Origin: a virus | Lineage: Duplodnaviria; Caudoviricetes | Reading direction: 5' to 3' (one strand) | IMG/VR virus record: IMGVR_UViG_3300002485_000002 | Location: 1 to 61,697 of that record | DNA: 61,697 bases | Part shown: one piece after another, positions 2,868 through 34,871 of the stretch | How the letters are laid out: every line of letters begins with the position of its first letter | Numbering within the stretch: the first letter of the stretch is position 1 | Notes under the pieces: generated by a model | Databases searched by the model: none | What the model saw: the letters and a program-made list of their open reading frames with translations, nothing else | What the model was told of the DNA's origin: nothing | Translations under genes and position numbers: made by a program

Positions 2868-3816
2868 TCAGCCGGTGATCCGGTACATCTGACGGTGGTA
2901 GCGCGGCGCGAAGGTTACCTGGACGGCGGCCAACACCTGACCGGCGACCTTGGTATTGCCTTGGCTGGGCTTCCAGCCGGTGAACCCCAAGCCGAAGTCG
3001 GGGTCGGTGGACATGTAGAAGTTCATAAACGGCTTGCGGGCATTGATCCAAAAGAAGGTTTCCGATGGAGTGGTGCCGGCGGGATAGCCCCCAACCGGGG
3101 CCGGGTACGCTGTCAGCGCTCCAAGCGACATCTCCCGCATGAAGGTGACGGCTACGGGGTCGTTCGTGCCGTTTGACTGGAACAGGTGGGTGCCCGGACA
3201 GTAGCGGCTGGCGATGACGGTAGCGCCGTTGAAAAGGAATCCCCTGAAGCCGATCTTCGGATCGACCGTATCGACAAACCGTTGCTGCGGCTGGAACTTC
3301 TCCTTGATGAAGCTGCGGCAGATCACCGTAGTGACCCCAAGGTTCGGCTCCAGATTGCCGAAGGTGGCATTGCCAAACTCCTCCTCCAGCGTGTTGTACT
3401 CGATGGTCCCGTTCACGTCATTCGGAGCGGAGTTGAGCACGGTCCCGACAGCCCCGCCGCGTGTGATCGTGCCGTAGGTTGGGTACGTGTTGCCGTCCCA
3501 CGATGCGGTCACGTTGTTGTTCAGCGCCTCCGGCAGACCGTTGAAGTTGGCCGTGTAGTTGGCGTTGATTCCGTTGAGGAACATCCCGATTTCCATGTGC
3601 GCGCCGATCGAGGCGTAGGCGTTCTGCATCCGGCTGTCGATCAGCCGGAAAGCCGCCGCCGGGCCGGTGTTGAGAACCTGGGTTTCCTCTTTCGAGAGCG
3701 TGACGTTGACCTGAAAGAACCGCATGGTGAACTGAAGCTGCTGCTCAACTTGCGGCTCGGTAATGTCGAACTCCTTGCCGATGTGATACGGCCCGCCGAT
3801 CAGGCCGTTGTACCAG
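2868..3816 (-). CDS. Major capsid protein, exon 2 (spliced product 368 aa, HK97-like fold inferred)
   Basis: Joins exon 1 in frame (...GENF|WYNGLIGGPY...); FNGL, GFRGFLFNGATV, FFWIN and C-terminal PRYH...ITG motifs; follows the scaffold gene. Confidence 0.88.
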
Positions 3817-4490
3817 CGATCTGTTACTTGATGACCTGCTTCTATTGAAGCAGGCGGCTGCCCATTTCTGGACAACTCTCACGGTTGTCATTCCCGTGAG
3901 ACCGGACTATCGCACCATCCAGCAGTGCTTCCGCCGCTGGAGCCTTCTCGCTTAGTCTCTCAGCCTGCAAGGCACGCCCTCCGTTGAGTTCAACCAATGC
4001 CGCCCAAATCATTCGCCGCTGGTCGTAAATCTCTTGTGGTATCGGGCAGTATCTTCCAAGTTTGGTATGAGGCGCTCGGCTTACTTCACTGAAGTCCATC
4101 ACAAGTTCAGCTTGCCGTCGCTTAACAACCAGATATGGAAGCAGAAGGCGTAAGGCAGTGCGGGCAGATTCTCCAAAAACCCGCCATTGCCATATACCCT
4201 TGTGGTCGTTCTCGCGGAAGTTGATCCGACCGCCGAACATCTTCTGTAACCGTGCAACTGGTTCAGGATGAATCTGCGCGGCATCCAGCATGATGCGGTA
4301 ATATATCCGACGATGTACCTTGTTGAAATTTCTGGTCACTCCAACATAGCCCTCACCGTCGATAAAACCAGCCGCCCACGCTAGTTGAATCGGTTCAATT
4401 GCCAGCTTGGCCCCTGTTTGCATCTCAGCATCCAAGTCAATCAGAGAAGGTTTTTTGCATTCACGTTACCGTGAAGGAACTCCGTAGTTG
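3817..4490 (-). mobile_element. Group I self-splicing intron (674 nt) in the major capsid gene
   Basis: P1 GAACUU/GAGUUC with U.G at the 5' splice site; P2 UUCACG-GUAA-CGUGAA; P3 CCUUCUC(4450-4444)/GAGAAGG(3949-3943); P7 GACUA(3957-3953)/UAGUC(3909-3905); P9 hairpins; terminal G at 3817; removal restores the frame. Confidence 0.92.
3842..4435 (-). CDS. Intron-encoded single-motif LAGLIDADG homing endonuclease
   Basis: LAWAAGFIDGEG motif, LQKMFGG, LLPYLVVKRRQAEL; lies inside the intron. Confidence 0.9.
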   Translation of the reverse strand: MDAEMQTGAKLAIEPIQLAWAAGFIDGEGYVGVTRNFNKVHRRIYYRIMLDAAQIHPEPVARLQKMFGGRINFRENDHKGIWQWRVFGESARTALRLLLPYLVVKRRQAELVMDFSEVSRAPHTKLGRYCPIPQEIYDQRRMIWAALVELNGGRALQAERLSEKAPAAEALLDGAIVRSHGNDNRESCPEMGSRLLQ

Positions 4491-4648
4491 AAGTTCTCCC
4501 CTATAAGCCGCCCACCGGGAAAGTCCTCCCTCACGTTGAGTTTGGCGTAGGCAACCACGGGGCCGCCCTGAAACGCCATGTCAACTAGTTTGGGATTGGC
4601 TCTGATGTATCGGTGAGTGGCAGTCGTTAATTGGTTTAACTCTGCCAT
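4491..4648 (-). CDS. Major capsid protein, exon 1
   Basis: AGGAG RBS; MAELNQLTTATHRYI...LVD..F...P..GG..I capsid N-arm pattern. Confidence 0.88.
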
Positions 4649-4664
4649 GCGTTGTGTCTCCTAA

Positions 4665-5456
4665 CTAGGTGGAAGGCTCCGGCCCTGTGCCGGGCTTCCA
4701 GTTGTCCCACCCTTCCAGGAAACCAGCGCGAGCGAAACGCTCCTGCTCAAGCTCGGATACGCCCTCTTTAGGAGCCTCGCGGTCGTAGAAGGTGTGGAAT
4801 GGTTTGGGGCCGGTTTCGATAGGCAGTTTGTTGCGGGAGGCGTAGTCTCGTACAGCTTCTTCACGCTCTCTCTTGATGCGCTCGTTCATGGCTGCCTCTC
4901 GGTCGGCCTCCTGCTTCTGCCTCTGGGAGTCCAGCTTGGGAGTAACGTAGAGTTCGTAGGCCCGATCCATGTCAGTGATCTTGCGATCGAGCGCAAACTT
5001 TTCCAACTCCCTCGTGTCCAAAGGCGCCCCGAAGCGGTGAAGATGGTCCTGCGCGATGCGTAGTCCGTTGTGGAGCAGGTTGGTGTAGGCTTGATCGCGC
5101 ACGGCAAACAATTGTTCGACCTCTTGCCGGGTAAGGACATTCGCGCCGTTGTTAGCCGCTTGCTGCCCTTCCAACGGGCCGTAGAGTTGCTCGTACCGCT
5201 TGAGCGTCTCGATGCCCGCAAGGTTGGTCTTGTAAGCCTGATCGGCCTTGCCATACCACTCCGCCAATGTTTTCTTCTCCCCGGCGAGTTCATCCATCTT
5301 CCGGCTGTAATCGTCGTGGCGCATCAGCGGATCGGTTGCTCCCGCTACGAACTTGTCGTTATCGAAAGCCTTCAGGACCGCATCTTTCTGGGCGTCTTCC
5401 AGCCCCGCGTCCTGAGCCAGCTTCGTAAAGTACGTTTTCGCTTCTTCCCGCGTCAT
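4665..5456 (-). CDS. Putative capsid scaffolding protein
   Basis: Helical, charged 263 aa with DYSRKM.EL motif; immediately upstream of the MCP; GGGAGG RBS. Confidence 0.7.
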   Translation of the reverse strand: MTREEAKTYFTKLAQDAGLEDAQKDAVLKAFDNDKFVAGATDPLMRHDDYSRKMDELAGEKKTLAEWYGKADQAYKTNLAGIETLKRYEQLYGPLEGQQAANNGANVLTRQEVEQLFAVRDQAYTNLLHNGLRIAQDHLHRFGAPLDTRELEKFALDRKITDMDRAYELYVTPKLDSQRQKQEADREAAMNERIKREREEAVRDYASRNKLPIETGPKPFHTFYDREAPKEGVSELEQERFARAGFLEGWDNWKPGTGPEPST

Positions 5457-6309: not shown

Positions 6310-7518
6310 TCATGGTACGATCGTCACCCGGCGGCGAACAGTCGAGGCTGGACCGCCAGGCGTGTAGTCCACATAGATGCCCATGAAGTCCGCGTGGGCG
6401 GTGCGCGTGGTAGTGTCTGTCTTGACTACCTCCACCGTTGGCGAGTTGCCAAGCGTGACAGAGGGACTGGCGGTCACCGGGCCGATATGGGTGCGCCAGC
6501 GCGTCGGGAATGTGTCGATGTCTCCCACGTTATCGCCAAAATCAAAACTCTGTCCTGTTTGACCAGAAGGGTTCGCCTGTATCCGAACGGTGCCGGTCTT
6601 GGTTCCTGTGTTAATCCCTTCCCCATCGTTACAGATCGCCATAACCGCGTTGATCGTGTCCGATGCCCCGATGCCGCCGGTCGTGTAGCTCTGCGTATTT
6701 ATGATAACCGCATCCGTACCGCTCTTGCTGGCGGAATTGATCTGGCTAGTATCCGTGTCACTGGCTTCCGCTACGCCCACTGGCGGGATGTTGTCCACGG
6801 CAGGAAATAGCGATGTACCGCCGCCACCGCCGACCCAGGCCCCGTCGGTGTTGTCGGAGATAGGCCGTAGGAGGATGGCTTGGCCTGCCCCCAAGTAAGC
6901 GCTAGAGTCACTTGCGATTGTATCATCAAAGTATATATTGCATGTTGGGAATGTCGCTATACCTCCTACGCCTATCTGCAGAGTATTAAATACTGAAGTG
7001 GGTACCGTAGATGTCGCTTCGGACGCCCACTCTACAGAATCCACCTTGACTCGCATTCCCACGCCGCCAACATTCCACCCGTTATCCCATTCAATTAAAT
7101 GCCACTGGTTGTCGGCAGTTAAAAGATTGGTGCTTGTTGCGGTCACAGTACCATCTGACACTCGTAAAGCACCGGTGGATAATAGGATTATCCTCTGTTT
7201 ATAATTTGCACCGTCAAGTATCGCTAGTATTATAGAATCAGTATCCACCATCGTCGCAATCCGCATATACATGCGAGCTGAGCGAAACAGATTCCTCTCC
7301 GCGCCGCCTGCCGCCAATGACCGAACCCTCACAAAGCCATCGGTGGCTGTAGGATTTACTTGCAGCGCGAAAGCTCCGGTTCTGACCGTTGTTCCCTGAA
7401 TACTTGGAAATCCGCCAATAACAGGAAATTCTCCTAGGCTCCCCATCTCAAAGCCGGTGATGTAGGTGTGCGCCCCCCATGCAGGCAAACAGAGAAGCAA
7501 CAGCGCCAGCAGTTTCAC
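6310..7518 (-). CDS. Beta-rich virion/surface protein with LamG/ConA-like domain and signal-peptide-like N-terminus
   Basis: MKLLALLLLCLPAWGA; DNQWHLIEW...VKVD...LQIG...YFDD pattern. Confidence 0.6.
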   Translation of the reverse strand: MKLLALLLLCLPAWGAHTYITGFEMGSLGEFPVIGGFPSIQGTTVRTGAFALQVNPTATDGFVRVRSLAAGGAERNLFRSARMYMRIATMVDTDSIILAILDGANYKQRIILLSTGALRVSDGTVTATSTNLLTADNQWHLIEWDNGWNVGGVGMRVKVDSVEWASEATSTVPTSVFNTLQIGVGGIATFPTCNIYFDDTIASDSSAYLGAGQAILLRPISDNTDGAWVGGGGGTSLFPAVDNIPPVGVAEASDTDTSQINSASKSGTDAVIINTQSYTTGGIGASDTINAVMAICNDGEGINTGTKTGTVRIQANPSGQTGQSFDFGDNVGDIDTFPTRWRTHIGPVTASPSVTLGNSPTVEVVKTDTTTRTAHADFMGIYVDYTPGGPASTVRRRVTIVP

Positions 7519-9108: not shown

Positions 9109-12100
9109 TTAATCCACAACGAACTTTACCGCCACCGTGATCCGCTTCGCCGTCCCGCCTGCCGTGATCATCAGGTAGTCGATCCGCTCGGTGTTTGCCA
9201 CGTTGTCCTCGTTCGTGTCGATCGTTCCCGTCGCTCCCGAGGTCGAGCATGTCAGGTTCGATGACAAGATGTTCGCCGGGCTGCCATCGTCGCGCTGTAA
9301 GTTGATGATCGGGCTGCCCGCGTCTGATTCGCACTGAACCTCTGTGATCGTGATCCCCTGTCCGAGTCTGTTCATGTAAATCGTCGCTTGATCGTCACCG
9401 TCAACGATAACCGCACCGTTGTCGGCCCCGACTATGAACATGATCTGGCGCGTGCGGTCCACGGCGGGGAGGTCGCCGTGGACGATGGCGGCGGAGATGA
9501 AGTTCGTCCCGTCGCCCCGTAGGTAGTTCCCAGTGGTAGCCGCGCCCCCAACCCTCAACCCCGTCGTCACATTCACGATCGAGCTGAATTGGAAAATCTC
9601 GGAGGCATCGACCGAGAAGGTTATATCGGTTCCGGCGGGCGAGGCTTCCCATCCGATGATGGCGGCGTTCTGTAGACGGAAGTATCCGGCGTCCGCCACA
9701 TCCCCATCTTGTAAAAGAGATGTAGTGATCGTCGGCGAGGTCCCGAAGACCAAAGCGCCAGAGCCGACTTCGTCGCTGATGACCCCAAGTAACTGCAATG
9801 AGGTGGTGGCGGCAAAGAATGAAAGGTTGTCAGTCGCGTTGGGAACGGCATTACCGCTCTCCGTGAGGGTGACAGCATTGAAGGTGCCCGAGGCCTGCAT
9901 CACTTCGGAGGTATCCACGGTGAGGGTGATGTCGGTCCCGGCGGGGGAGGCTTCCCATCCGATGGTGGCGGCATTCTGTAACCGCAGGTACCCGGCATCG
10001 GCTGCGTCGCCGTCCTGGGATAGCGAGGTTGTGATGGTAGGGGAAGTTCCGAAGACTGCCACTCCTGTGCCGGTCTCATCATTCAAAACACCCAACAAGT
10101 CCGCTGAGGTAGAAGCCGCGAGATGGGAGATCCCCGCATCATAGGTCCAGTTTCCAGCCGTGATCCGAGGCACCCCAGTCGTACCGCTGGTGTCATCGCC
10201 CGTGCAACCCCGAGCAGCTTCACATTGCCCGGCGGCCCAAAAGGATGTAGCGCTGTCGCCCAGCGTCGCGGTAATCGACCCGGTTCCCTCAGCCGTGAGC
10301 GCCCCGGTCTGGCTGACCGTGATCCCGTTCGTCCCGTCGCCCGCCCGAAATACCGTCACCTGCGCATCCGCCGCCCGAACATCGAGCAGCGTACCGGCAG
10401 TGGGATTCCCGGTCTGCTGCCGGATTAAGAATTGCTGACTCGCCCCAAACGCCGATTCAAACGAGAACGTGACCGTCTCGGCAGTATTGTTTGAGGTGTA
10501 GGATGTGGCGGTATCGGCGGAATTCACCAAACTTTCCCATGCGGGAGTCCCTCCACTCACGTCCGCCGAGCAGGCAACGACGCCAAGAGCCGATACGGCG
10601 CTCACCTTGTCGCTGCCCGAGCAAGTCAGTGGCTGCACCGCCACGCTGTTCGCATTGGGCAGGGTAAAGGTACGAGCCAGAGTCGGGTCAGTCACCACAA
10701 TCGTGGTGTAGACATTGTCATCGGTTGTGCCCTCGAACTGGATAGGCGATCCGCCCAATAGTTCTTTCCCCGACAGGGCAAGTTGCGCAGCCAGCGATAT
10801 AACCGGAGTTTGTCCCCCGGTCGAACCGATTTCACTGGCGGTGCCGGACACAGAATCGACGGAGTTGTTGAAGGTCGTCCAGTCCGCCGACAACAGCGCC
10901 CCACGAACGGTCGCCGACGCCGACGGGAGGTTGAACGTAACCGAGTTGGCCGCGTGGGCAATGGCAAAGTCGGTTCCAGTAGTGCCCGTCGCCAAGCTCT
11001 TGTGCTCGATCGCCGTGGCCCCGGCGTTGGTTCCGAGAACTTGGTTGGCGGTCCCGAACGGGAGTTGCGCCAAGGTCGCCGAACCTGAGAGGTTTGAGAA
11101 CGCAGGTTGCGCCTTGCTGATGACCCCGAGCGTCGAGATGGCCGTTAAGAATTGATTCGCGGCTCCGGCGTCGGGCTGAACGGCGACGCTATCGGCGTTC
11201 GGAAGCGTGAACGTCCGCGCCAGCGTAGGGTCGGTCACGACGACGGTGACGTACACATTATCGTTGGTCGTGCCCTCCATCCGAAACGGGCTTCCACCGA
11301 GGAATTCCTTTCCCGAAACGTCGAGCGACGCGGACAACGAGAGCACGGGAGCAACGCCCGCTCCGCTTGAAGTAATCTCATTGGCGGTTCCCTGGACGTT
11401 GATCTCGGCGTCACGGGCGATTGCCGCCGGTACGTCGCCGTCCACAATCGCTGCCCACGCTGGAAGGGCACTCACCGCCCCCGTACCCGTCTGGGTCAAA
11501 AACTGTTTGGCGGTGGTCGTATTGCCAGCCACTCGCTGCCACGCCGGCGTCACGTTCCCCGCCAGAATATCCCCCAGAACCGCGCTCGCCGCAGCCGTGT
11601 CGGTGTGTGTCGCCGAGAGCAGATTATGCGCCGCCGTCGTGTCCACGTCCGCCGAACAGGTGATGACCCCGAGGGTCGAAACCCCACTTACCTTGTCCGT
11701 CCCGGAACAGGTCAAGGGCTGAACCGCCGCACTGTCCGCGTTGGGCACCGTGAGGGTTCGTGGCGCAGTTGGCTCCGTTACCACCAGCGTTGTCTCGAAG
11801 GCATCAGGAGTAGCCCCCTCGAACACCAAAGGGGACCCGCCAGAAAGTACTTTTGTGCTCAGATTCAGAACTGCTGCGATCGAGAGCGTAGGAGCGACGC
11901 CAGACCCGCTGGAGGTAATCTCGTTTGCCGTGCCCTGGACATTGACCTCGGAATCCCGCGTAATTGTAGCCGGCACATCCGCATCGACGATAACGGCCCA
12001 GGCCGGAAGGGCGCTGACTGCGCCGGTTCCGGTTTGAGTGAGGAACTGTTTAGTTGTCGTTGTGTTGCCGGTAACTTGCGCCCATGCCGGCGTAGCGTTT

Positions 12101-12372
12101 GCTGCAACGATGCCGCCCAGAACCGGGCTGGAAGCAAGCGAATCCGAATGGGTGGCAGACAGGAAATTATGCGCGCCCACTCCGCCACCGGGGCCGACCA
12201 GATTCCACGCTCCCGCTTGACAATCATACAAATTTCCGTTGGCATTGTTGACCGCCAGCATGATCGGAGCGCAAGAACCTGCCGGCACGCCGGCGAAACG
12301 AAGAATCACGGTGTTGCCGGCCTGAGCCAGCAAGGACGTGGTCAGACACACAAATAACAAGATCAGCCGCAT
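9109..12372 (-). CDS. Large tail-fibre-like protein with internal repeats and signal-peptide-like N-terminus
   Basis: T/S/A/G-rich; repeated GTANEIT and DE(T/V)G(T/S)GxxVFGTSPTI modules; C-terminal beta-sandwich. Confidence 0.7.
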   Translation of the reverse strand: MRLILLFVCLTTSLLAQAGNTVILRFAGVPAGSCAPIMLAVNNANGNLYDCQAGAWNLVGPGGGVGAHNFLSATHSDSLASSPVLGGIVAANATPAWAQVTGNTTTTKQFLTQTGTGAVSALPAWAVIVDADVPATITRDSEVNVQGTANEITSSGSGVAPTLSIAAVLNLSTKVLSGGSPLVFEGATPDAFETTLVVTEPTAPRTLTVPNADSAAVQPLTCSGTDKVSGVSTLGVITCSADVDTTAAHNLLSATHTDTAAASAVLGDILAGNVTPAWQRVAGNTTTAKQFLTQTGTGAVSALPAWAAIVDGDVPAAIARDAEINVQGTANEITSSGAGVAPVLSLSASLDVSGKEFLGGSPFRMEGTTNDNVYVTVVVTDPTLARTFTLPNADSVAVQPDAGAANQFLTAISTLGVISKAQPAFSNLSGSATLAQLPFGTANQVLGTNAGATAIEHKSLATGTTGTDFAIAHAANSVTFNLPSASATVRGALLSADWTTFNNSVDSVSGTASEIGSTGGQTPVISLAAQLALSGKELLGGSPIQFEGTTDDNVYTTIVVTDPTLARTFTLPNANSVAVQPLTCSGSDKVSAVSALGVVACSADVSGGTPAWESLVNSADTATSYTSNNTAETVTFSFESAFGASQQFLIRQQTGNPTAGTLLDVRAADAQVTVFRAGDGTNGITVSQTGALTAEGTGSITATLGDSATSFWAAGQCEAARGCTGDDTSGTTGVPRITAGNWTYDAGISHLAASTSADLLGVLNDETGTGVAVFGTSPTITTSLSQDGDAADAGYLRLQNAATIGWEASPAGTDITLTVDTSEVMQASGTFNAVTLTESGNAVPNATDNLSFFAATTSLQLLGVISDEVGSGALVFGTSPTITTSLLQDGDVADAGYFRLQNAAIIGWEASPAGTDITFSVDASEIFQFSSIVNVTTGLRVGGAATTGNYLRGDGTNFISAAIVHGDLPAVDRTRQIMFIVGADNGAVIVDGDDQATIYMNRLGQGITITEVQCESDAGSPIINLQRDDGSPANILSSNLTCSTSGATGTIDTNEDNVANTERIDYLMITAGGTAKRITVAVKFVVD

Positions 12373-12719
12373 CATCGTGTTATAAAGAGGACATTCACCG
12401 TTTCGGCGTTAGTGTCGCAAGCCAAGTAGATGTGGTCTAGCCGGATGAGGTTCACGTCCATCGAATAAATCGGCCAGACCTGCGTGGCGTAGATCAGCGC
12501 GCCGTAGTTGGTTGTACTCAAGTCAGGATTGCCGATGTAGAAACGAGCGCCGCCAGCATCGGGGTTGGCTTGGATAGCGACGAACTGAGCGCGTGGGGGG
12601 TTGCCCATAATCGGACGACGGGCTGCGGGGACGTCACTAAGTAGTTGCGACAACTGATAAGGCGTATTAGCCGTAGTCAGGGTAAGCGTGCCTGCCCAGG
12701 GAGTGTTCGAGACGGGCAT
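12372..12719 (-). CDS. Small beta-sandwich virion protein, paralog of 13176-13460
   Basis: IG...S.T.YGA...LD..Y pattern shared; TGATG coupling. Confidence 0.6.
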   Translation of the reverse strand: MPVSNTPWAGTLTLTTANTPYQLSQLLSDVPAARRPIMGNPPRAQFVAIQANPDAGGARFYIGNPDLSTTNYGALIYATQVWPIYSMDVNLIRLDHIYLACDTNAETVNVLFITR

Positions 12720-13473: not shown

Positions 13474-15366
13474 CTAGCTCTCTTTCATCACCATTCTGGG
13501 CATCTCCTGCCCGCTGGCTTTGCGCCCCGCCGGATTGACCTGCATCCCGATGCCGAGCGATTGAGCGGCCTGTAAGCGCTCAGTGATGCTGTTGGCCCCT
13601 GACGGGGGATTGCCTACATTGGGGATGCCTAAGACCTCAAGAAGCGTCCAGGGGTCCACCAGACCAGCCCGCGCCAACTGCAGATACAACAACTTCCGTT
13701 CGATTTCGCTGGCCGACAGCAGCGATCCCGGAGCGATATGGAATGTGAACTGGCGCAGAAACTCTTGCGCCCGGTCGAAGCGAGGCATCGGCCCTCGGGC
13801 CAGCGCCTCGGCGGTCGCTACCCCGCGATTGTCAAAGTCAGAAGCGTGGACATAGTCTGGAATCAAGCTGCCCGGATCGAAGTCGAAGTCCTCCGGCGTA
13901 ACGCCATCTTCCCCTAGAAGGTGCAGCCGGATCGGCAGCGTGTCGAATTGGGCGAAGTTATAGGCCAACATCATCGCAAACTCGCGGACGAAGGACTCCA
14001 TCATCCGGCTCCACAGGCGGATTTTGGGCGTCATGGCCTCTACCAGCCGCTCAATGGTGTCACCGGAGGGGAGTTGGTTGAGCCGCGAGAGGTGCCCGAG
14101 ATCCCGAACGCCGCTCAGGGTGTCCATTTCGTTGATGAGGAACTGGATTGTCTTCTCGATCGTCGGGTCGAGCGGCGGTTCGAGCGCCAAGACCACGCCT
14201 TTTCCGGCGGTAGGATTGTGGCGGATGCGCAGACCGGCCCGGCGGGTGTCGATCGAGTTCAACTCCGACTTGCTGATCGAGTTCTTGTCGGCGATCAGGC
14301 CAGGACGCGCTACTCTCTCGTTATGGTCATCGACCACCCTCAGCAGGCTGTTGAGAGATTTCTGAAGCGGTAACAGGTCCCACAAGGGCGCTTTGCCGAG
14401 CCATGACCACGGCCAGGGGTTCAAGGTGAACTTAGGCAGCGGGATCAAGCCGTGCCAATACCTGTTCGGACCATCATGCAAGATGACCGTGTTGGTGGCA
14501 GTGATGCAGCGCCCACGCGGATAGAGCGGCTCATCCGGCTGGACGATGTAGGACCAGTTCGTCAGCGGGCGGCCAGCCTGATCGAATTCGCCCATCTGCA
14601 CGGGGTAGCTGTTCTCATTACGGGAATCGTCCCGGAGATAGACCGTGTAATGATCGGCGGTGGGGATGCGAGGGATTTCCCGCGCTGCCTTGCCTCGGAT
14701 GCGGTCCCAGAATGGGGAAACAGCCTCATAAATTTGGGCGGCGCGGGATTGAGCATCCTGCCGGGAGGAAGTCGAGCCGTCACGGTCAGGATGAATCTGG
14801 GAGGCGAACTGAGGCCACCGACGGCGCAGCGAGTTGACTGTCCGCTCCTCGCGGATGACGGCTCCGAAAGCGTCCTGCAACGTCAGGTTCGAGGAGGGCC
14901 GAATGGGGAGAACATCCCGAGGGTCCAAGGCGCGAACATCGGTGTCGCCTATCTCGGGGTTCCAGAACACATGCGGAAATCCGGTGCCCGCTACTAACCA
15001 ATACTTGACAACCTCCAGCAAGCGCAAGTCGATCTGGCGCTGAAGGTACCAGTGGGTTGCGCGCTTGCCGAAGATTTCAGATTGCTTCTCGTAGCGCTTG
15101 TTCTGGGTACGGTATTCCCAGAAAGGCTTGATGTCGGTCAGATAGGCAGCGAGGTCGTCGGCGACCTTGGCGTAATGGTTGGCCGAGGTAGTCGAGAGGT
15201 TTCCGGGGCGGATGTCTTCGCGGGTCTGGCCGACAGCCTCGATGGACTTGGCGATCAGGTTGTAGCCGGGCTGAGCTTTGACGAAGGATTCCCCCTCCTG
15301 AATAGCTTCCCGTATCCATCCGTGGACTTGGCTGTCACGGTCGGAGGTTGGAATCTGGTCAGCCAA
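13474..15366 (-). CDS. Portal protein (630 aa)
   Basis: Size and position after the terminase; motifs L.AGTG..HV.W, LDPRDV, GP..YWHG..P, L.PLQ..LN, M..LSG; GGAGG RBS with TTG start. Confidence 0.85.
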   Translation of the reverse strand: MADQIPTSDRDSQVHGWIREAIQEGESFVKAQPGYNLIAKSIEAVGQTREDIRPGNLSTTSANHYAKVADDLAAYLTDIKPFWEYRTQNKRYEKQSEIFGKRATHWYLQRQIDLRLLEVVKYWLVAGTGFPHVFWNPEIGDTDVRALDPRDVLPIRPSSNLTLQDAFGAVIREERTVNSLRRRWPQFASQIHPDRDGSTSSRQDAQSRAAQIYEAVSPFWDRIRGKAAREIPRIPTADHYTVYLRDDSRNENSYPVQMGEFDQAGRPLTNWSYIVQPDEPLYPRGRCITATNTVILHDGPNRYWHGLIPLPKFTLNPWPWSWLGKAPLWDLLPLQKSLNSLLRVVDDHNERVARPGLIADKNSISKSELNSIDTRRAGLRIRHNPTAGKGVVLALEPPLDPTIEKTIQFLINEMDTLSGVRDLGHLSRLNQLPSGDTIERLVEAMTPKIRLWSRMMESFVREFAMMLAYNFAQFDTLPIRLHLLGEDGVTPEDFDFDPGSLIPDYVHASDFDNRGVATAEALARGPMPRFDRAQEFLRQFTFHIAPGSLLSASEIERKLLYLQLARAGLVDPWTLLEVLGIPNVGNPPSGANSITERLQAAQSLGIGMQVNPAGRKASGQEMPRMVMKES

Positions 15367-15789: not shown

Positions 15790-16209
15790 CTACAGGTACT
15801 GATCCAGTAGTGCGATCATACGTTGACGACCCTGTTCAATCAGTTGCAAACGGTATTTTTTCTTGAACATTCCCTCTTCATCTTCAAGTGTCCAACCACC
15901 GATATAGAACTCATCCCCTGGCCGATACGGACCCTCTCCAGTTCCAGGCGTATTGACGTAGAAACACCGTCCGACTCTGCCATTCGGTAATCGTTCCAAT
16001 GCGGTCCATTGTCCACAAATGTGGCGAGAAGTTGATGCGCCTTTCCATCCTGTCCAACTAACCGGCATCCCCCTATAGACGAACACTGGCTCAGGCCAGT
16101 CGCACAATAAATCCTGCGGAATACAATCTGAACCCCATAGATCTACGATAGAGGCTAGATTTGCTGTCGCCAGTGCTGGCAACATCACAACAAGTGTTCT
16201 CCGCTTCAT
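15790..16209 (-). CDS. 139-aa protein with RR-hydrophobic leader and two capsid-like segments
   Basis: GGAGG RBS; TGWK-x9-GQ-xx-A and GPY-xx-G-x-EF-x-I match the MCP. Confidence 0.7.
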   Translation of the reverse strand: MKRRTLVVMLPALATANLASIVDLWGSDCIPQDLLCDWPEPVFVYRGMPVSWTGWKGASTSRHICGQWTALERLPNGRVGRCFYVNTPGTGEGPYRPGDEFYIGGWTLEDEEGMFKKKYRLQLIEQGRQRMIALLDQYL

Positions 16210-16213: not shown

Positions 16214-16627
16214 TTATCCTCCGAGATAGCCCTGCAACGCCCGCGTGACGATTTCCTCGATGGCGTCCTCCAACGGCTTGCGCCCGGCGGCGTACTTAAT
16301 CTTCTGAAGCAAGTCGGGCTTGATGTGGACAGGCTTACCGTCGAGCTTGATGGTGTTAGCGCGGCGCAGAAACTCAACTACGTGACCGCCGCTAGGGAAG
16401 TTGCGGCCAAGCAGCTTCTCAAGCTCCCGGCGTCGTTCATCGTTGAAATAGAGCGATCGGCCATCGTCATGGGACCAGCAGGAACGCAGGCGGGCGACGA
16501 TGGCGGCTTCAGTGGTCAGCCCGAGAGCGCGAGCCTGAGACTGATAGACCCGGTAGGTCTCCTCGGGAAGTTCGATCGACAGGACGATGGTGCGGGCGGG
16601 GGCGGACTGCACAGGGGCGGCTGCCAT
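16214..16627 (-). CDS. Putative ribbon-helix-helix-like DNA-binding protein
   Basis: VLSIELPEETYRVYQSQARALG and VHIKPDLLQKIKYAA segments. Confidence 0.5.
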   Translation of the reverse strand: MAAAPVQSAPARTIVLSIELPEETYRVYQSQARALGLTTEAAIVARLRSCWSHDDGRSLYFNDERRRELEKLLGRNFPSGGHVVEFLRRANTIKLDGKPVHIKPDLLQKIKYAAGRKPLEDAIEEIVTRALQGYLGG

Positions 16628-16636
16628 ACGGGAGAT

Positions 16637-16665
16637 ACAATACAGCAAGCCGGGGCGAGAGGCAA
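16637..16665 (-). promoter_or_regulatory. Promoter TTGCCT-17-TATTGT, near-leaderless
   Basis: Followed by ATCTCCCGT ATG; matches the 6273-6301 motif. Confidence 0.65.
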
Positions 16666-16673: not shown

Positions 16674-17522
16674 TTAGCCCTCCGTCAGTTCCGAAAACCG
16701 CTCCTCCCACTCATCCCACATTTTAGCGGCTGAGATGTCGCTGGCCTGCCACGAGGGCACCTTCTCGCCCGCAAGGACCGGCTCCCGCTCGGTCTCTACT
16801 TCCATCGTCCAGTGGTGGCCAGCCCATAGGGTCAATAGGAGCGCCCGCAGGCGGTCATCGTGGGCGCCGTAGGCGGCCTTGGCCGACATCTTCACGGGAT
16901 CCATCTCGGCGCTGCGCATCTCCTCAATCAGCCACGGGCTGTTGATCGTAACGCGGTCACGATGTATGAACTTGGCCCCGCGTACCCATAGGTGAGTGAC
17001 CGACTTGGCGGTAGCGGTCCAGCCCAAAGCTCCAGTACGGCTCGGATGTGGGACCAAGGCATCGAGATAGGTCCAGACATATTGGTTGGTGTAGCCGAGC
17101 GTAATCATCTTACGCAGAGTCTGGAGACCAGGGCCGGGATAGACTTCGATGATCGAAAGGCACTGACCATCCTCGTTGGAGCCGCCGTAGAGACGCCCGA
17201 GGGCGTTGGCGACGATCCCGAGGTCCTCCGGGTCGATTGGGGCCGCATACTCGGCAACCTGCACGTCTGGTTCAGGCTCCTGGCCGATTCGCAGGACAGT
17301 GATCGCCCCGTTGTCAACGGTAATGTCATCCCGAGTGCGCAGCATACGGTCCCAATTGGGGATGCCCATGGTCGGGTCGATGCCCATAACGTAGGAGGCG
17401 CGTGGGCGCGGAGGTTCCCAGAGCCAGATAATGCCGCGAGGGTCGCGGTCGATTTCCCCAGCGTCGAGCGGAGAGAGAGTCTGAGTGGTTCCGATCGTAT
17501 AGGAGGTGGGTGTAGGCATCAT
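16674..17522 (-). CDS. terL: Terminase large subunit, stand-alone nuclease (RNase H-like) domain
   Basis: WEPP...YVMGIDP..G, QVAEY, IIEVY..G and HDDRL motifs; ATG at 17522 overlaps the upstream stop (ATGA). Confidence 0.85.
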   Translation of the reverse strand: MMPTPTSYTIGTTQTLSPLDAGEIDRDPRGIIWLWEPPRPRASYVMGIDPTMGIPNWDRMLRTRDDITVDNGAITVLRIGQEPEPDVQVAEYAAPIDPEDLGIVANALGRLYGGSNEDGQCLSIIEVYPGPGLQTLRKMITLGYTNQYVWTYLDALVPHPSRTGALGWTATAKSVTHLWVRGAKFIHRDRVTINSPWLIEEMRSAEMDPVKMSAKAAYGAHDDRLRALLLTLWAGHHWTMEVETEREPVLAGEKVPSWQASDISAAKMWDEWEERFSELTEG

Positions 17523-17731
17523 TTCCAAACAGTAGTTACGTAAGCTCCTGTTGGAGTATGATATTCTGTACCTTCCAGAACTACCCATTGCAGATTTGTT
17601 CCCGGACAGTTGGGTGAGAGTTCCGCATGGCTAACCATCAAGCAGCGTATCAGATCATCCGTCAACGCTCCATCTATTGCAGTACTACCCTCCTGTTTGC
17701 AATCCAGGCAACGCCACTTCTGTTTATCCAA
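17519..17731 (-). CDS. Small Zn-binding hypothetical protein between the terminase halves
   Basis: GGGGAGG RBS; CxxC...H...C. Confidence 0.6.
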   Translation of the reverse strand: MDKQKWRCLDCKQEGSTAIDGALTDDLIRCLMVSHAELSPNCPGTNLQWVVLEGTEYHTPTGAYVTTVWK

Positions 17732-17755
17732 TTTAGTAACCCTCCCTTTTAGGAG

Positions 17756-18004
17756 TCACGTCGCTGTATCATCGGCGGGACTATCTTCCCGCCTTTCACC
17801 ATCACGAGCCAAACGGTGACGATGTTTCAGCTTCTCAGCATCCAAGTGGGCTGCAAGTTCATTGGCTGCCTCAGTGAAACGGTTGCCTGCGGAGGCGGAG
17901 ATTGACACATTGGACCTGTCTGGACTATCAACATCATATTTTGGCTCAGACTTGAGAAAAGCCTCTCCCGTCTCTTCCAACATTTGATATGGTCCTTTTA
18001 TCAT
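17756..18004 (-). CDS. 82-aa protein resembling the portal N-terminus
   Basis: ATGA-coupled; GEAFLKSEPKY and NRFTEAANELAAHL align to portal residues 24-80. Confidence 0.7.
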   Translation of the reverse strand: MIKGPYQMLEETGEAFLKSEPKYDVDSPDRSNVSISASAGNRFTEAANELAAHLDAEKLKHRHRLARDGERREDSPADDTAT

Positions 18005-19239
18005 GATGCTCTCCGTATCAATTCATAGGGTACGCCCGCGCGCGCTCTCAAGTCCAGCCGCTCCATCAACTCGGCATCGAAGGCAGCCTGGCCGGAGTGC
18101 TGAAAACTTTCCTCGGGAGTGGCGCAATAATTCGTAAGGAAGATATTCAGCGTAGATGAACTTGGCCCCACGTGCCCATCGCCGTCGCCCTGCGCTGCTC
18201 TTCGAGTCGTCTCCCACCAATACATTTGCTCTGGTGAAGGACTGTAGCGATAACCAACCAGCCTTGGGCTGGTATCCTCAATCTTGCGAGCAGCCAGTAC
18301 GGTAGTTTCGAAGGGTCGCCAGTCAACAGGCGGATTGCGTCGATAGCGCTTCGGCTCAATATACCAGGGGGTGAAGCTATAGATCCAATCGACGCGGCGG
18401 CCTGCTCGGACAGCTTCACTAAAACTATGCCACCAGTTGCCTCGACCGTTTGCGGCGCTTTCCAAAAAAGCGAGGGTGTCGATCGACCGGGGCAAGGTCG
18501 GGAAGAAATCGTTCTCGATTGTCAGCGGATATTCCCAGGAGGCACATTCGGTAAGATGACCAGTCGGAAAGTTGCTTCCCTGCCCGATGCCAGTATGTTG
18601 AAGACCCTGCTGGTAAAGAATATGCGAATTGAGCCGATCAAAATGAAGATGTTGAGACTTCACATCAAAACCGATAGAAGGATGAAGAAACCAAGGAAGG
18701 TTGTCGAGAATTAACTTGTCGCGCCGGTAGAGTTCAAGGATCTTACCCTCACTGACGGAGGCGGCAAGCGAACGGGTATTCTTGTGAAACAGGACGCGGT
18801 GAAGCATTAGGGCGCGGGCCAACATCGTAGCTCCCAATTGGCGAGCTTTGTGACAGGCGATCCGAATACCGTCGGCTATTTTGGCACGGTCGAAGGAGTC
18901 CCACTGGGATTCTTCCGCCTGGCCGATGAGCTTGAGCATGATTTCCTGGGAAGCCCAGAAGGTCATCGGGCCGACGCCGCCTCCCATCTCGGGGTCAATG
19001 TCGATGGTGGCGTAGCGTTCGGCGAAGTAGCGGAAGTCGCACATCGACAACAGCACTTCGTTGATGCAGAACAGGCTCTCCTCGCGGGTCAGCGGACGCT
19101 TCAATCCCTTGTCAGTCACCAGCGAGTGAATCTCAAGAGCGCGGCCCTGCGACTCAGACGGGGCGTGTCGCTTGAGGCGGACTTTCGTTGCGCTCTCGAC
19201 CTGCTCAGTGCGGCGAAGGATGATCTTGTCGGAGTACAC
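18001..19239 (-). CDS. terL: Terminase large subunit, stand-alone ATPase domain
   Basis: KARQLGAT Walker A, HLTECASW Walker B, ESAANG motif III, FTPWY, YCATPEESF. Confidence 0.9.
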   Translation of the reverse strand: MYSDKIILRRTEQVESATKVRLKRHAPSESQGRALEIHSLVTDKGLKRPLTREESLFCINEVLLSMCDFRYFAERYATIDIDPEMGGGVGPMTFWASQEIMLKLIGQAEESQWDSFDRAKIADGIRIACHKARQLGATMLARALMLHRVLFHKNTRSLAASVSEGKILELYRRDKLILDNLPWFLHPSIGFDVKSQHLHFDRLNSHILYQQGLQHTGIGQGSNFPTGHLTECASWEYPLTIENDFFPTLPRSIDTLAFLESAANGRGNWWHSFSEAVRAGRRVDWIYSFTPWYIEPKRYRRNPPVDWRPFETTVLAARKIEDTSPRLVGYRYSPSPEQMYWWETTRRAAQGDGDGHVGPSSSTLNIFLTNYCATPEESFQHSGQAAFDAELMERLDLRARAGVPYELIRRAS

Positions 19240-19778: not shown

Positions 19779-20380
19779 GTTGGAATCTCCGGCTCGGCAG
19801 GGCGGCCCGGCCTGACCTGAACCATCTCGATGATCTTCTCCATGCCCTGATCGGGGCCGAAAGAGGCGGAGAAGGAGTTGAAGTTAGCGACCAGGGGGGC
19901 GTCGCCGGTGACCCCCAGCGCCTGCATCATTATGTGGCGGGATTCGAGGTCGCCGGGCTTCTGGATGACCCCATGACCCGAGCAGCGCGGGCAGAGCGAC
20001 TTCGACTTGCGGCTGAGTTTGCCCTTGCCCCGGCAAGTCGGGCACAGATCGGTGAAGGAGGCGGCATCGGAGGCGATGTTTTCCATCACCTTGGGAGCGA
20101 ACGTGGACATCGCCATCAGGCCCAAGTTGACCTGATGACGCCGCCAGACATCCTGAAGGTCGGTCAATGTGACGGCATGATGGCGGCAGAGCGTCACTAG
20201 CGTCATACGGGAGTTGCGCGGGTCGGTCATGGAGGTCTGCAAGTCACGGAACCGTTGCTCCTCCTGGAGAGCAAGGGCGGCGGTAAACTCCCCCAACGGG
20301 ACGTTATGAAAGAACTTGTGCATCGAGGCGTCGTAGCGGGGGTTGTCAGGGACCGGGCGATTGTCGAGGTCGCGTTTCAT
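19775..20380 (-). CDS. Probable terminase small subunit with CxxCxGxG zinc-finger insertion
   Basis: Upstream of terL; CPTCRGKG...CPRCSGHG; helical core. Confidence 0.5.
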   Translation of the reverse strand: MKRDLDNRPVPDNPRYDASMHKFFHNVPLGEFTAALALQEEQRFRDLQTSMTDPRNSRMTLVTLCRHHAVTLTDLQDVWRRHQVNLGLMAMSTFAPKVMENIASDAASFTDLCPTCRGKGKLSRKSKSLCPRCSGHGVIQKPGDLESRHIMMQALGVTGDAPLVANFNSFSASFGPDQGMEKIIEMVQVRPGRPAEPEIPT

Positions 20381-20601
20381 GTCACCTTCCGATCCACATT
20401 GGGGATTTCCAAACCTTCAAGAAGCGTCCAGTTGTCGATTAAGCCGACCCTGTGTAGCTGCATGTATAACATCATTCTCTCAATGTTGCTGATGGACAAA
20501 AGCGCCCCCGGAGCGATGTAGAACTGACGAAGGAGTTCTTGTGCTCGATCAAAGCGCGGAAGCGCTAAAATCGGAAGCGTCAACAGAAAACGACGGGTCA
20601 T
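20377..20601 (-). CDS. 74-aa protein: TRRFL leader fused to a copy of portal residues 528-584
   Basis: GGAGGAG RBS; 41/57 identical residues by manual alignment. Confidence 0.85.
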   Translation of the reverse strand: MTRRFLLTLPILALPRFDRAQELLRQFYIAPGALLSISNIERMMLYMQLHRVGLIDNWTLLEGLEIPNVDRKVT

Positions 20602-26586: not shown

Positions 26587-27290
26587 GCCCTCACCTCCCA
26601 CGGCAACACATCCCGCATCTCATCCCACAGCCATCGGTGAGCGTCCGCGTGTGTCTGCTCATCGGTCAACCCGCGCTCCCGAAGCCAGTCTTGGTAGGCA
26701 GGCTTGGTAGAAGTCTGCCCGCCTTTGTGCAGGCACGAGACGCCGACCATGCGGATGCGATAGCCCTGACGGCGGGCGACACCGCAGAGCCAGTAGTCGT
26801 AATTATGGAAGATCAACTTGTGAACCGGCCACCCAGCCCACTGCTTCATCCCGTCCTGGTGCCACGCTCTCTCCAGGATCACCCGGCGAACAATCAGAGC
26901 GAAGCCATCAAGCACGGCCACGTCGCACGCGCCGGTGAATCGCTGGCCGTGCTGTTCGGCGTCTGTAGTATTCGAGAGGTATCCGTAGCGAGCGAGGTTC
27001 TGCAAGCGGTAGGGCGAGCGGTAAAGGTCGGGGCTGCCATGTCGCAAAGCGCCGCCGAAACCGATGAGGCCGACCGAAGGATCGGAAAACTCGGCCAGCA
27101 CACGCTCGGGCCAATCAGGATCGTAAATCTCCACGTCGTTATGCAGGTAAGCCAGAATGTCGGCCTTAGCTACCTCAAGTAACTCTTGGTACATAGCAAC
27201 CACCGACCCGACTCCCGTTACAAAGTACCGATCATCTCCAGGCCCGCTAACAGGTTCGGAAGGACAGGCCATGCAGACTGTCATGGTCAC
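26583..27290 (-). CDS. Glycosyltransferase, GT2-like
   Basis: YLHNDV, G.IG..G, AVLDG, FHNYDYW.C. Confidence 0.85.
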   Translation of the reverse strand: MTMTVCMACPSEPVSGPGDDRYFVTGVGSVVAMYQELLEVAKADILAYLHNDVEIYDPDWPERVLAEFSDPSVGLIGFGGALRHGSPDLYRSPYRLQNLARYGYLSNTTDAEQHGQRFTGACDVAVLDGFALIVRRVILERAWHQDGMKQWAGWPVHKLIFHNYDYWLCGVARRQGYRIRMVGVSCLHKGGQTSTKPAYQDWLRERGLTDEQTHADAHRWLWDEMRDVLPWEVRA

Positions 27291-28462
27291 TTCAGGCCCT
27301 CCAGAAACCACTTCTTCCAGCAGCCTTCCCACAGCCGGGGCCATTGAAGATGCTCGACGATACCGACTGCACGCTCAGGGTCGCGCCAGCTCGATTCGGC
27401 CAGCACCTTCTGAATGCAGGCGCTCCAGTCGGCAGGCTCAAACACCGGACGGAGCAAATTGTAGGGGCCGTCGAGGCGATAGCTGACGGGGCGCACGAGC
27501 AGGTCGTCGTCGTTGCGCAGCAGGCAAGCGCCGCCGCCGTAGTCGCCGTGAATAACCGGGACGCCGCAAGCCAAGCTCTCAACGATCGGATAGCCGAAAC
27601 CCTCGCCGAGCGACGGCAAGATCGTCAGGTCGCAAGCTGAGTACAGATAGCTCAACTCCACGTCGTTCTTGGTCTCTGACATCGTGACTCGAACAACGTC
27701 TGCCAGCCCGAAATCTTGGATTAGGGCATAGATCGACCAAGCGCGGACCATCGCATCGACGTGAACCCAAAAACGCAAATTCTGAATCTTGGAACGCAGG
27801 TCAGCGACGGCGGCGAATGCGAGGCCCCAGTCCTTCCGGGTCTGATTGGTCATGACGCAACCAATCAGAATGTCGTGCGCATGAATGCCGAGAGTCATCC
27901 GACCGGGAGCACGCTCGCGGGGCGAGAAGGATGCAGGGTCATATCCGTGCGGCAGCCAGTCTACCTCTGTGCCGAGCGAACCGCTAAGAATACTGGCTCC
28001 CCAGGGCGTATAGGCCAACCGGCGGTTGAAGCCTCTGACGGCAGCGACCGCGAGGCCGGTTAGGCGGTCGCCGGGTCCGGTTGCATCGACCGGGAAGTAG
28101 CCCCAGCGGCGGAAGGGCGGGCGGCGGAGGAAACTGAATGTCTGTTGATCGAACGCCTCTGGCCGGGGGTCTACCAACCAATGCAGGCGGACCGGGTCCC
28201 AGATCGTCATGAGAATGCCAGAATCGCCTTTGGAGAATTCCCGCCAGACCCGTTCCAGGTGTTGCTCACCCCAGTCCCAGCGCTCATCGAAAGTGTATTG
28301 ATGGAAAGGGAGCTGGCTGGAACCGCAGCCGCCACGCCCTAGGAACCCGACACGAAACTCGGGGAGTGACGATACGCGGACGGCCAGATCGCGGCTGATG
28401 CGTCCGAGGCCGGTCTGGAGGTCGGGGGAGTCGCCAAGAAACAGGATAGGAGTAGGTTTCAC
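27287..28462 (-). CDS. Glycosyltransferase, GT4 family
   Basis: TGLGR, PHG.D, NQ.RK, PSLGEGFGYPIVESLACGVPVI. Confidence 0.92.
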   Translation of the reverse strand: MKPTPILFLGDSPDLQTGLGRISRDLAVRVSSLPEFRVGFLGRGGCGSSQLPFHQYTFDERWDWGEQHLERVWREFSKGDSGILMTIWDPVRLHWLVDPRPEAFDQQTFSFLRRPPFRRWGYFPVDATGPGDRLTGLAVAAVRGFNRRLAYTPWGASILSGSLGTEVDWLPHGYDPASFSPRERAPGRMTLGIHAHDILIGCVMTNQTRKDWGLAFAAVADLRSKIQNLRFWVHVDAMVRAWSIYALIQDFGLADVVRVTMSETKNDVELSYLYSACDLTILPSLGEGFGYPIVESLACGVPVIHGDYGGGACLLRNDDDLLVRPVSYRLDGPYNLLRPVFEPADWSACIQKVLAESSWRDPERAVGIVEHLQWPRLWEGCWKKWFLEGLK

Positions 28463-30471: not shown

Positions 30472-30638
30472 CTCCCCCCTACTTTTTTTGAATACCGCAA
30501 GCTGCCGCGCCGCGCCGCTGCTACCAGTTTGTCGAATTCCCTCTCAAGTTGAGCCTTGAGAAGCAAGTCTTTTTCTTTTTCGTTATGAATGCGCTCGATA
30601 GATCGAACGATAAACTGTTTGCGTTCCCTGAAAGTCAT
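30456..30638 (-). CDS. Hypothetical protein
   Basis: ATGA coupling. Confidence 0.5.
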   Translation of the reverse strand: MTFRERKQFIVRSIERIHNEKEKDLLLKAQLEREFDKLVAAARRGSLRYSKKVGGRWIIQ

Positions 30639-31426
30639 AACCGCCTCAACCTCTCCACTTCGGAGTACTCTCGCTTATCTGAAACCGCCTCGCCGAAAGT
30701 GCCCTCCCACATGCCGTCGCGGAGGAAGTTCTCCAGGCTCACGACTACGCCCCGGCTGACCTCGGAGGAAAGTTTGTACGCCTCGACGCCAGCAAGAATT
30801 CTCGCCTCGGTTTGAACGTCTTCGCACCGCGAGAGAAAAGTCTGACAGGCTAGGTCTGGTTTCCTGATCCTCGGGGCGATCGGTTCCCGCTGGCAAGCGG
30901 CAACCAGTCGCTCCCATCCGGCCCGTGGATCGTAGCCGTTTTTCGGCGCAAGCGCCGCCGCGAAATGCTCTCGCGCGCGCGTAGAGGTTTTTCGCTCATC
31001 TTCAGGTTTTCTTTTCAGGAAAGACACAGACACAGAGTCAGAATCAGACGCGGTGCTTAAGGGGGGCTTACTTAAGTTCTTGATTCTTCTAGCATTAACC
31101 ATTCCACCCCTGCGCCCATCTTCGATTGATTTTGTTTTCTCTCGTAGTTTCTGCTTCCGCATAACGGCCAGTTTTCGATTGCGATACCTCCCGTTTTTCA
31201 GGTTGAAATGAGGGAATACCATCGGCCCGGCGGCGCTGAGTTCCGCGATAGAAAAATTGGTCATCCTTGCCAGCTTTTCCGGGTCATTCGGAATGTACCC
31301 ATCCTTCCATTGGTACATCAGCAAGTCGAGGTAAATTGCCCTGGCCGTTGCGGTCATGGTCAACCGCGTCGGGGATGTGAGCCAATCATCCACGTATAGC
31401 GGCATGAACGGCAGCACCGCCATCAT
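30635..31426 (-). CDS. Replication initiator-like protein (YdaU/DUF1376-type N-terminus)
   Basis: LPFMPLYVDDWL...IYLDLLMYQW..G.IPND..KLA...YRN.KL; C-terminal ENFLRD..W. Confidence 0.8.
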   Translation of the reverse strand: MMAVLPFMPLYVDDWLTSPTRLTMTATARAIYLDLLMYQWKDGYIPNDPEKLARMTNFSIAELSAAGPMVFPHFNLKNGRYRNRKLAVMRKQKLREKTKSIEDGRRGGMVNARRIKNLSKPPLSTASDSDSVSVSFLKRKPEDERKTSTRAREHFAAALAPKNGYDPRAGWERLVAACQREPIAPRIRKPDLACQTFLSRCEDVQTEARILAGVEAYKLSSEVSRGVVVSLENFLRDGMWEGTFGEAVSDKREYSEVERLRRL

Positions 31427-31463
31427 CGCCACCAGCGTTTTGACTTGTCGGATTGTAACAATA

Positions 31464-31512
31464 GCCCCTCCTAGCAAGGGTGTGGGAGCGGTGCTGCTAG
31501 GCCACCGCCCCC
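31464..31512 (-). promoter_or_regulatory. Predicted H-type pseudoknot overlapping the SD upstream of the initiator gene
   Basis: 10-bp stem GGGGGCGGUG/CACCGCUCCC; loop CCUAGCA pairs with UGCUAGG. Confidence 0.6.
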
Positions 31513-31564
31513 GGTGACCTTCTTCGGTTACTACGTCTAGGGGCCGTCGCCGCCAGACATGAGG

Positions 31565-31593
31565 ATTATCCGCCATCTTGCAGCCCGTGTCAA
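31565..31593 (-). promoter_or_regulatory. Sigma70 promoter TTGACA-17-GATAAT
   Basis: Near-consensus, intergenic. Confidence 0.7.
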
Positions 31594-31602
31594 GAGAAAA
31601 GT

Positions 31603-31815
31603 TCACGGCAGCAACTCGATCGACCGATGCTCTCCCACCGTGCGCCGGAGCCAGCCTTTCTTTTCGAGTGCACGTAAAACCAGCGTGATGTAATTCAGGG
31701 ACCAATCGCACCGCTGTGCGATTTCGGCAATGCTCGGCGAACGCCGCTGCTCCTGGAAGTAGCGGACAACTTCAGCGAAGACTCGTTGTTGTGAGGGAGA
31801 CAGGGGCAAGGGCAT
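31603..31815 (-). CDS. LexA-type winged-HTH DNA-binding protein (no protease domain)
   Basis: LSPSQQRV...PSIAEIA...L.ALEKKGWL.R....RSI. Confidence 0.8.
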   Translation of the reverse strand: MPLPLSPSQQRVFAEVVRYFQEQRRSPSIAEIAQRCDWSLNYITLVLRALEKKGWLRRTVGEHRSIELLP

Positions 31816-34797: not shown

Positions 34798-34871
34798 CAG
34801 GGTTGCCCGTAGCCGTCGCCGGAGCCGGAGCCGGAGCCGGAGCCGACGATAACGTAAGTGTTCTTCTTCAT
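34797..34871 (-). pseudogene. 24-aa remnant MKKNTYVIVGSGSGSGSGDGYGQP
   Basis: AAGGAG RBS; TGATG coupling to the exonuclease; GGCTCC repeat. Confidence 0.5.

Follow-up and report, generated by a model that had tools for sequence, protein, structure and literature searches.

The window analysed here is the entire record of a soil phage; it spans 61,697 bases, has direct terminal repeats and is rated 100% complete. The identical stretch is contained in soil and sediment metagenome runs. Its structural genes are encoded on the minus strand, where the gene under study, P0001, is located in the terminase–portal block between two conserved genes, with a 4-nt gap on both sides (Table 1). As for expression, no RNA datasets containing the window stretch were listed. 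The ATPase and nuclease parts of TerL are separate ORFs (16674-19239), and two small GC-poor ORFs (GC 46.5% and 49.8%) lie between them. The TerL halves of another phage locus, L003, have a 413-aa ORF and a 220-aa ORF in between, and the TerL of locus L006 is one ORF of 1107 aa, far longer than the two TerL parts of the window summed, an excess that suggests an insert. Outside the structural genes, the PHROG search identified a glycosyltransferase (27287-28462 (-), 1e-23), a primosomal protein (30635-31711 (-), 2e-9), an exonuclease (34150-35049 (-), 2e-26) and a methyltransferase (35685-36431 (-), 8e-21), and gave zero matches for the large ORFs 48421-49833, 49838-51670 and 55248-58634.

Table 1. 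Positions of the P0001 gene, its parts and neighbours, and the interrupted capsid (MCP) gene in the window
Feature	Position	Strand	Basis or remark
TerL, ATPase part	18001-19239	(-)	
TerL, nuclease part	16674-17588	(-)	
Conserved 144-aa gene, upstream of P0001, terminase–portal block	16214-16648	(-)	C-terminal parts homologous in L002, L003 and L006
Shine-Dalgarno GGAGGA, 7 nt ahead of the ATG at 16209	16217-16222	(-)	Within the final codons of the upstream gene
P0001 gene (139 aa + stop)	15790-16209	(-)	Translation
P0001 leader, residues 1-20: MKRR, then 18-residue uncharged run; A-T-A at 13-15 as possible cleavage site	16150-16209	(-)	Family motif
P0001 residues 48-84, three predicted β-strands, WTGWK-x9-GQW	15958-16068	(-)	Against C-terminal strands of the MCP ORF (294-331); hhalign 37.9, P 3.1e-5
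P0001 residues 87-103, PG..G.Y.PG..F[DY] block	15901-15951	(-)	Against MCP stretch after the N-arm; hhalign (87-136 vs MCP-ORF 22-80) 37.1, P 4.2e-5
P0001 long C-terminal helix, residues 117-138 (predicted)	15796-15861	(-)	pLDDT >90; aligned to P0033 residues 94-114, only partly helical
Conserved 138-aa gene, Cys-rich N-terminus, downstream of P0001	15369-15785	(-)	Homologs immediately ahead of the portal gene in L002, L003 and L006
Portal	13474-15366	(-)	
Scaffold	4665-5456	(-)	
MCP exon 1, N-arm, ~residues 1-53	4490-4648	(-)	tblastn, P0033 residues 1-55 to 4648-4484, 65% identity; stop soon after GENF
MCP exon 2, from WYNGLIGG	2868-3815	(-)	tblastn, P0033 residues 54-368, 71% identity; phrog_9953 major head protein, E 1e-7
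MCP segment, ORF residues 22-80, counterpart of P0001 second half; begins 2 residues past the exon junction	3636-3812	(-)	hhalign and HMM
MCP segment, ORF residues 294-331, counterpart of P0001 first half	2883-2996	(-)	hhalign and HMM

When 1.84 billion representatives were searched exhaustively with HMMER, 29 relatives of P0001 were obtained at E ≤ 1e-3, 97-188 aa in length, which make 30 clusters with P0001 itself, and a profile search added five further members, raising the total to 35. The word-index homolog search with P0001 found P0001 alone, on 15 contigs. All ten clusters that were looked up came from metagenome collections only (JGI/IMG, ENA, Logan, MetaClust), and one of them was named 'hypothetical protein'. 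The family is rare and has been seen only in metagenomes, and, with a sequence identity of 25-44%, it is old and diverged. The alignment shows W52, G54, Q67 and W68 to be invariant and T53, K56, G98 and F101 to be conserved in at least 90% of the members; its consensus is Y.G..V.WTGWK-x9-GQW.A ... PG..GG.Y.PG..FD, with a C-terminal helix after it. Searches of Pfam, PHROGs and NCBIfam with P0001 and all 30 members found no model for the core of the family. In the PDB sequence search, the family profile matched S100-A2 alone (E 0.72) and the MCP profile nothing at E ≤ 1. No relative was detected by the search of genome contigs, the metagenome-contig search yielded the L006 contig alone, the viral-contig search with P0001, P0156 and P0016 gave nothing, and tblastn against phage records produced matches only at E ≥ 3. 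One member, P0021 (188 aa), carries a RyR domain (PF02026, E 5.4e-5) at its N-terminus in place of the leader.

The preliminary description of this locus had claimed that P0001 is built from two segments of the capsid protein placed in reversed order, and as a whole this observation was confirmed, as it exceeds chance at the level of the family. The first segment of P0001, SWTGWKGASTSRHICGQWTA (16000-16059 (-)), corresponds to GFTGWKPSQGNTKVAGQVLA of the MCP ORF (2928-2987 (-)), with the common TGWK-x9-GQ-xx-A spacing, and the second, GPYRPGDEFYI (15901-15933 (-)), to GPYHIGKEFDI (3762-3794 (-)), with 7/11 identical residues; the strings, the spacing and the identity were all given correctly. 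The order is reversed as described, since residues 51-70 and then 93-103 of P0001 match residues 296-316 and 28-38 of the MCP ORF, respectively. Conservation in homologs had been named as one of the checks on which the idea should stand or fall, and the two motifs turned out to be the most conserved blocks of the P0001 family. Compared as two proteins alone, however, P0001 and the MCP gave only borderline evidence. The best BLASTP HSP, covering the first motif, had an E-value of 0.052 and the second motif was not reported, while the ungapped diagonals scored 39 and 34. Among 300 shuffles, 2.3% attained the top score of 39 and a single one (1/300) the top-two sum of 73, both figures being without multiple-testing correction. 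A pairwise likeness of this size would lose its significance given how many ORF pairs can be scanned.

Comparison of the families gave a much firmer result. The hhalign tool reported one 25-column match between the P0001 and MCP families (P 4.5e-5), and when alternative alignments were allowed, the 30 P0001-family and 33 MCP sequences produced the two matches listed in Table 1, in reversed order. The reversed-column controls scored only 10.8 and 10.6, and 120 within-block column permutations gave a mean top score of 13.2 with a maximum of 25.1 and almost never a second match. The matches persisted when both window proteins were omitted (P 5.9e-5 and 1.7e-4) and when only distant members of the P0001 family were used (P 7.4e-5 and 2.5e-4). 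The free choice of the ORF pair in the preliminary description was accounted for by a control within the window, in which an HMM of the 29 other members, made without P0001, was run with filters off against all 720 stop-to-stop ORFs of at least 50 aa. The P0001 ORF was found at 4e-32 and the MCP ORF at E 2.2e-6 with both segments matched, while the next best ORF had an E-value of 2.4. The best non-family match was again the MCP in three other loci, L003 (1e-4), L008 (0.074, 251 ORFs) and L006 (0.25, 589 ORFs). When 120 MCP relatives were compared with the family HMM, 116 matched at E ≤ 0.1 and 72 at 1e-3, against 0/120 reversed and 0/120 shuffled decoys, but these MCPs are close relatives (59-71% identity with the window MCP, one 99%) and thus amount to about one observation from one lineage.

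The likeness had been presented as two patches, and both are real, but rearranging the MCP extends it over almost all of the mature domain (residues 48-137). For this test, an MCP alignment made without the window protein was reordered to columns [300-368]+[55-140], and hhalign then returned a single 90-column alignment over P0001 residues 48-137 (score 63, probability 96.9%, 27% identity) that is interrupted at the junction by a gap of 2 columns. None of 100 null runs scored above their maximum of 25.9. Against the relationship stand the low identity and the shortness of both blocks. Its P-value of 1.7e-10 is descriptive and not blind, since the block limits were set after the first alignments had been seen. 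The resemblance to the MCP at the level of sequence profiles is specific and permuted, and its extent over nearly the entire mature domain points to descent from the capsid P-domain and not to surface mimicry.

The 335-aa ORF that had been read as the MCP is indeed a capsid ORF, although it represents only exon 2 of an interrupted gene. The MCP gene is split after about residue 53 (window 3816-4490 (-)), and the gap holds an ORF for a LAGLIDADG-type endonuclease (3842-4435; phrog_5046, E 2e-22). Exon 2 lies in another frame, therefore the interruption is not an intein, and Rfam gave no match to a group I intron at E ≤ 1 across 3600-4800. At least 446 relatives of the MCP were found, and relatives are 356-373 aa long. 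In the alignment of 33 MCPs, the blocks GG.Y.KGKEFD and FTG[FW]K-x9-GQVL are conserved, with T299, G300, G27, G33 and F36 invariant and K302, G312, Q313, G28 and Y30 present in at least 90%. The AF2 model of one relative, P0033 (pLDDT 81.9), adopts the HK97 fold: at E ≤ 1e-3 it has 344 matches in the PDB, HK97 Head II (6e-8) among them.

The AF2 model of P0001 (pLDDT 82.5, pTM 0.70) has low pLDDT in residues 1-39, followed by strands 42-45, 48-57, 64-73, 79-87 and 92-95 and helices 108-113 and 117-138. Strands E48-57, E64-73 and E79-87 fall in register on E328-337, E342-355 and E360-366 of P0033, its C-terminal strands, which form a long β-hairpin and the last strand. The second motif is located in the MCP model just ahead of the hairpin E77-94, before the spine helix H109-131. 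Beyond this motif the predicted secondary structures differ, the place of the E-loop hairpin 77-94 of the MCP being taken by helices in P0001. The alignment has a 9-column gap in the E-loop region, and P0001 is predicted to be helical at 108-113. In terms of secondary structure alone, the comparison with the P-domain thus comprises three strands in register and a long helix after them, with an offset in the helix alignment, and it is uncertain whether the C-terminal helix of the P0001 model is equivalent to the capsid spine helix. PMC5701804 describes the HK97 P-domain as the spine helix plus a three-stranded sheet with the P-loop. Judged by the topology given there, the C-terminal hairpin in the models most likely belongs to the sheet of the P-domain, while the second motif lies ahead of the E-loop. 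The preliminary description had placed the segments in a P-domain hairpin and at the start of the E-loop, and proposed that P0001 may mimic an inter-subunit surface. This interpretation is supported in part, as the motifs are kept, the strands match the C-terminal hairpin of the MCP and the second motif lies ahead of the E-loop.

No part of P0001 aligns with the N-arm (MCP residues 1-54), and the A-domain with its 5-stranded sheet (residues ~115-326) has no counterpart in it. With the N-arm and the entire A-domain absent from its mature domain of about 95 residues, and probably most of the E-loop as well, P0001 lacks the lattice-building parts and cannot be a capsid subunit. A decoration protein with a known fold was also considered and rejected. 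Foldseek searches of PDB and BFVD with the P0001 model gave nothing at E ≤ 1e-3, the best 50 matches listed by the VIA wide fold search included no capsid chain (best Z 5.1, a curli complex), and the ESM Atlas, whose own model of P0001 is poor, had no usable match. A permuted chain order would hamper structure aligners that depend on the order of elements. The prediction of a complex between MCP exon-2 residues 21-335 and P0001 residues 40-139 returned no answer (score 0.00) and weighs neither way.

These data also bear on the simplest alternative, that the P0001 family is unrelated to the capsid and that short Gly/aromatic β-hairpin motifs recur by chance or by convergence of local structure. 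The insignificant pairwise BLASTP value, the lack of a fold match to capsids, the disagreement of secondary structure beyond the second motif and the fact that the pair was picked after scanning many ORFs are all in line with it. Nevertheless, we regard it as unlikely, since the MCP stood out so clearly among the 720 ORFs, the match recurred in three other phage loci and with the leave-out profiles, none of the 120 decoys scored, and rearrangement brought both blocks into one continuous alignment.

The N-terminus of P0001, MKRRTLVVMLPALA, was confirmed by translation, and the RR leader noted there is a feature of the family. The pattern RRx[FL][FLVIM] with an uncharged stretch of 9-31 residues behind it was found in 22 of the 35 members, while 13, including one consistent subgroup, are leaderless. 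These 22 resemble Tat signal peptides in having RR, then F/L and a mildly hydrophobic run. In P0001 itself the motif is KRRTLVV, which is non-canonical compared with the S/T-R-R-x-F-L-K type, although the uncharged h-region (18 residues) and the possible small-x-small cleavage site A13-T14-A15 fit a Tat signal. The TIGR01409 model (TAT_signal_seq) matched 8/30 members at E ≤ 1 (best E 0.0033) and PF10518 one of the 30, but P0001 matched neither at E ≤ 1, its KRRTLVV being below the reach of the models. Unlike Tat proteins, the family has no conserved cofactor-binding residues. From its sequence, P0001 is probably exported, and a leader of the twin-arginine type suggests that it probably folds in the cytoplasm and is then exported to the cell envelope. 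Export cannot be essential to the domain, given the leaderless members and the one with the RyR domain. The conservation of an export leader nevertheless speaks against a function in the assembly of capsids in the cytoplasm.

The gene occupies a variable slot. Its GC content is 49.3% and its GC3 45.7%, compared with 58-61% and 60-75% in the flanking genes, 58.5% GC in the genome and 84% GC3 in MCP exon 2. In L002 and L003, the portals of which are 47-49% identical to that of the window, another ORF of 77-88 aa is found at the P0001 site, while L006 has a family member there (TerL, 211-aa gene, member, Cys-rich gene, portal), and the member found in L008 is located immediately upstream of TerL. 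A co-occurring strain (about 92% identical) is represented in run X9 by a single contig of 123 bases and depth 3.7, in which the P0001 gene is absent and 7 other letters bridge positions 15784 and 16218. As read from this contig, the upstream gene would end in a new stop and the downstream gene would start with GTG behind the same GGAGG. The aligned contigs contained no variant letters inside the P0001 gene and were uninformative on selection. Presence or absence at a fixed site and the deviating composition identify P0001 as an accessory gene ('moron').

Another short ORF of the window contains a piece of a structural gene. Residues 14-69 of the 74-aa product of ORF 20377-20601 (-) correspond to portal residues 527-584 (71% identity, E 2e-24), and the portal-like part is preceded by MTRRFLLTLPILA. 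Like P0001, this ORF is short and GC-poor (GC 49.3%) and has an N-terminal M-T-R-R-F-L-L with a hydrophobic stretch, but it is a recent copy, whereas the P0001 family is old and spread over several phages. ORF 45104-45568 was considered as a capsid fragment, but it was not confirmed, as it matched the MCP only at E 0.015 over 24 residues.

Weighing these results, we lean towards the view that P0001 is an accessory gene of the late packaging/head operon, the domain of which descended from the capsid P-domain in rearranged order and is probably exported. According to this scheme, the mature domain would derive from the P-domain region of the lineage's own HK97-fold MCP by a circular-type rearrangement, which would have placed the C-terminal β-hairpin and last strand of the capsid protein first and joined them almost directly to the stretch after the N-arm (capsid residue ~55). 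Most relatives would have gained a twin-arginine-type signal peptide, and in the envelope P0001 may act as a small binding module. We guess that it serves to compete with or exclude other phages, or to control the envelope at a late stage of infection.

In P0001, the join between the counterparts of the capsid C-terminus and of residue 55 is two residues away from the MCP intron site (F53|W54). A wider version of the above scenario, which we consider quite unlikely, is that the lineage builds accessory genes from its own structural genes, that breaks made by the homing endonuclease may have seeded P0001, and that the pieces with RR/hydrophobic leaders are exported or targeted to the membrane against rival phages or host sensors. 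The position of the join near the intron site may, however, reflect a mere domain boundary.

An extension of the idea in the preliminary description, by which P0001 would stay in the cytoplasm as a mimic of the P-domain/E-loop contact, bind capsid subunits or their scaffold or decoration partners and thereby tune or poison the assembly of its own phage or of a competitor, appears improbable. The matched segments are capsid elements, the gene belongs to the head/packaging operon and the 13 leaderless relatives would fit such a role, but in the 22 others the export-type leader would take the protein away from the site of assembly, and the gene is dispensable in relatives. Host defence systems that sense capsids and portals exist, and a decoy function, by which a capsid fragment would occupy capsid-recognising immune sensors and portal-fragment ORFs would do likewise for portal sensors, could draw on the portal-derived ORF as at least one clear structural-gene fragment in the genome and on the foreign composition of P0001 in its variable slot, yet we find it very improbable, as such sensors are cytoplasmic while most family members carry an export leader, and a family so diverged is not a fresh copy of a capsid epitope.

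In phages, herpesviruses and encapsulins, the HK97 fold is known as a whole unit from which shells are built. P0001 resembles the P-domain of this fold in that the alignment spans the C-terminal hairpin and strand of the MCP and the stretch before the E-loop, and in that a pattern of three strands and a long helix is predicted for both. It is unlike an HK97-fold MCP in its length (~95 versus ~368 residues), the lack of the N-arm, A-domain and a recognisable E-loop, the reversed segments and the signal-type leader. According to PMC3863775, the capsid protein of Bordetella phage BPP-1 has an HK97-like fold of non-circularly permuted topology. It shares with P0001 the use of HK97-fold building blocks in another chain order, but in that account it is a complete, assembling capsid protein with swapped α/β elements, whereas P0001 is fragment-sized and its join looks circular. 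According to PMC8385771, the antiholin RI of phage T4 is a small protein that carries a cleavable signal peptide and acts in the periplasm. P0001 can be likened to it by description alone; the signal of RI is of the Sec type, and nothing ties P0001 to a holin. A small exported protein derived from a capsid was not found in the literature searched (open-access text only). If the preferred reading is true, a stand-alone, rearranged P-domain with an export signal would be a new viral reuse of a capsid gene and a rare natural permutation in the HK97 fold. With about 35 clusters and a confident model, the P0001 family offers a concrete case for studying how fragments of structural genes turn into accessory genes.

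Signal peptides of another type were also seen among the structural genes of the window. Two large ORFs of this region, 9109-12375 (-) and 6310-7518 (-), start with the Sec-like sequences MMRLILLFVCLTTSLLAQA and MKLLALLLLCLPAWGA, respectively, and such signal peptides are unusual on proteins encoded among virion genes.
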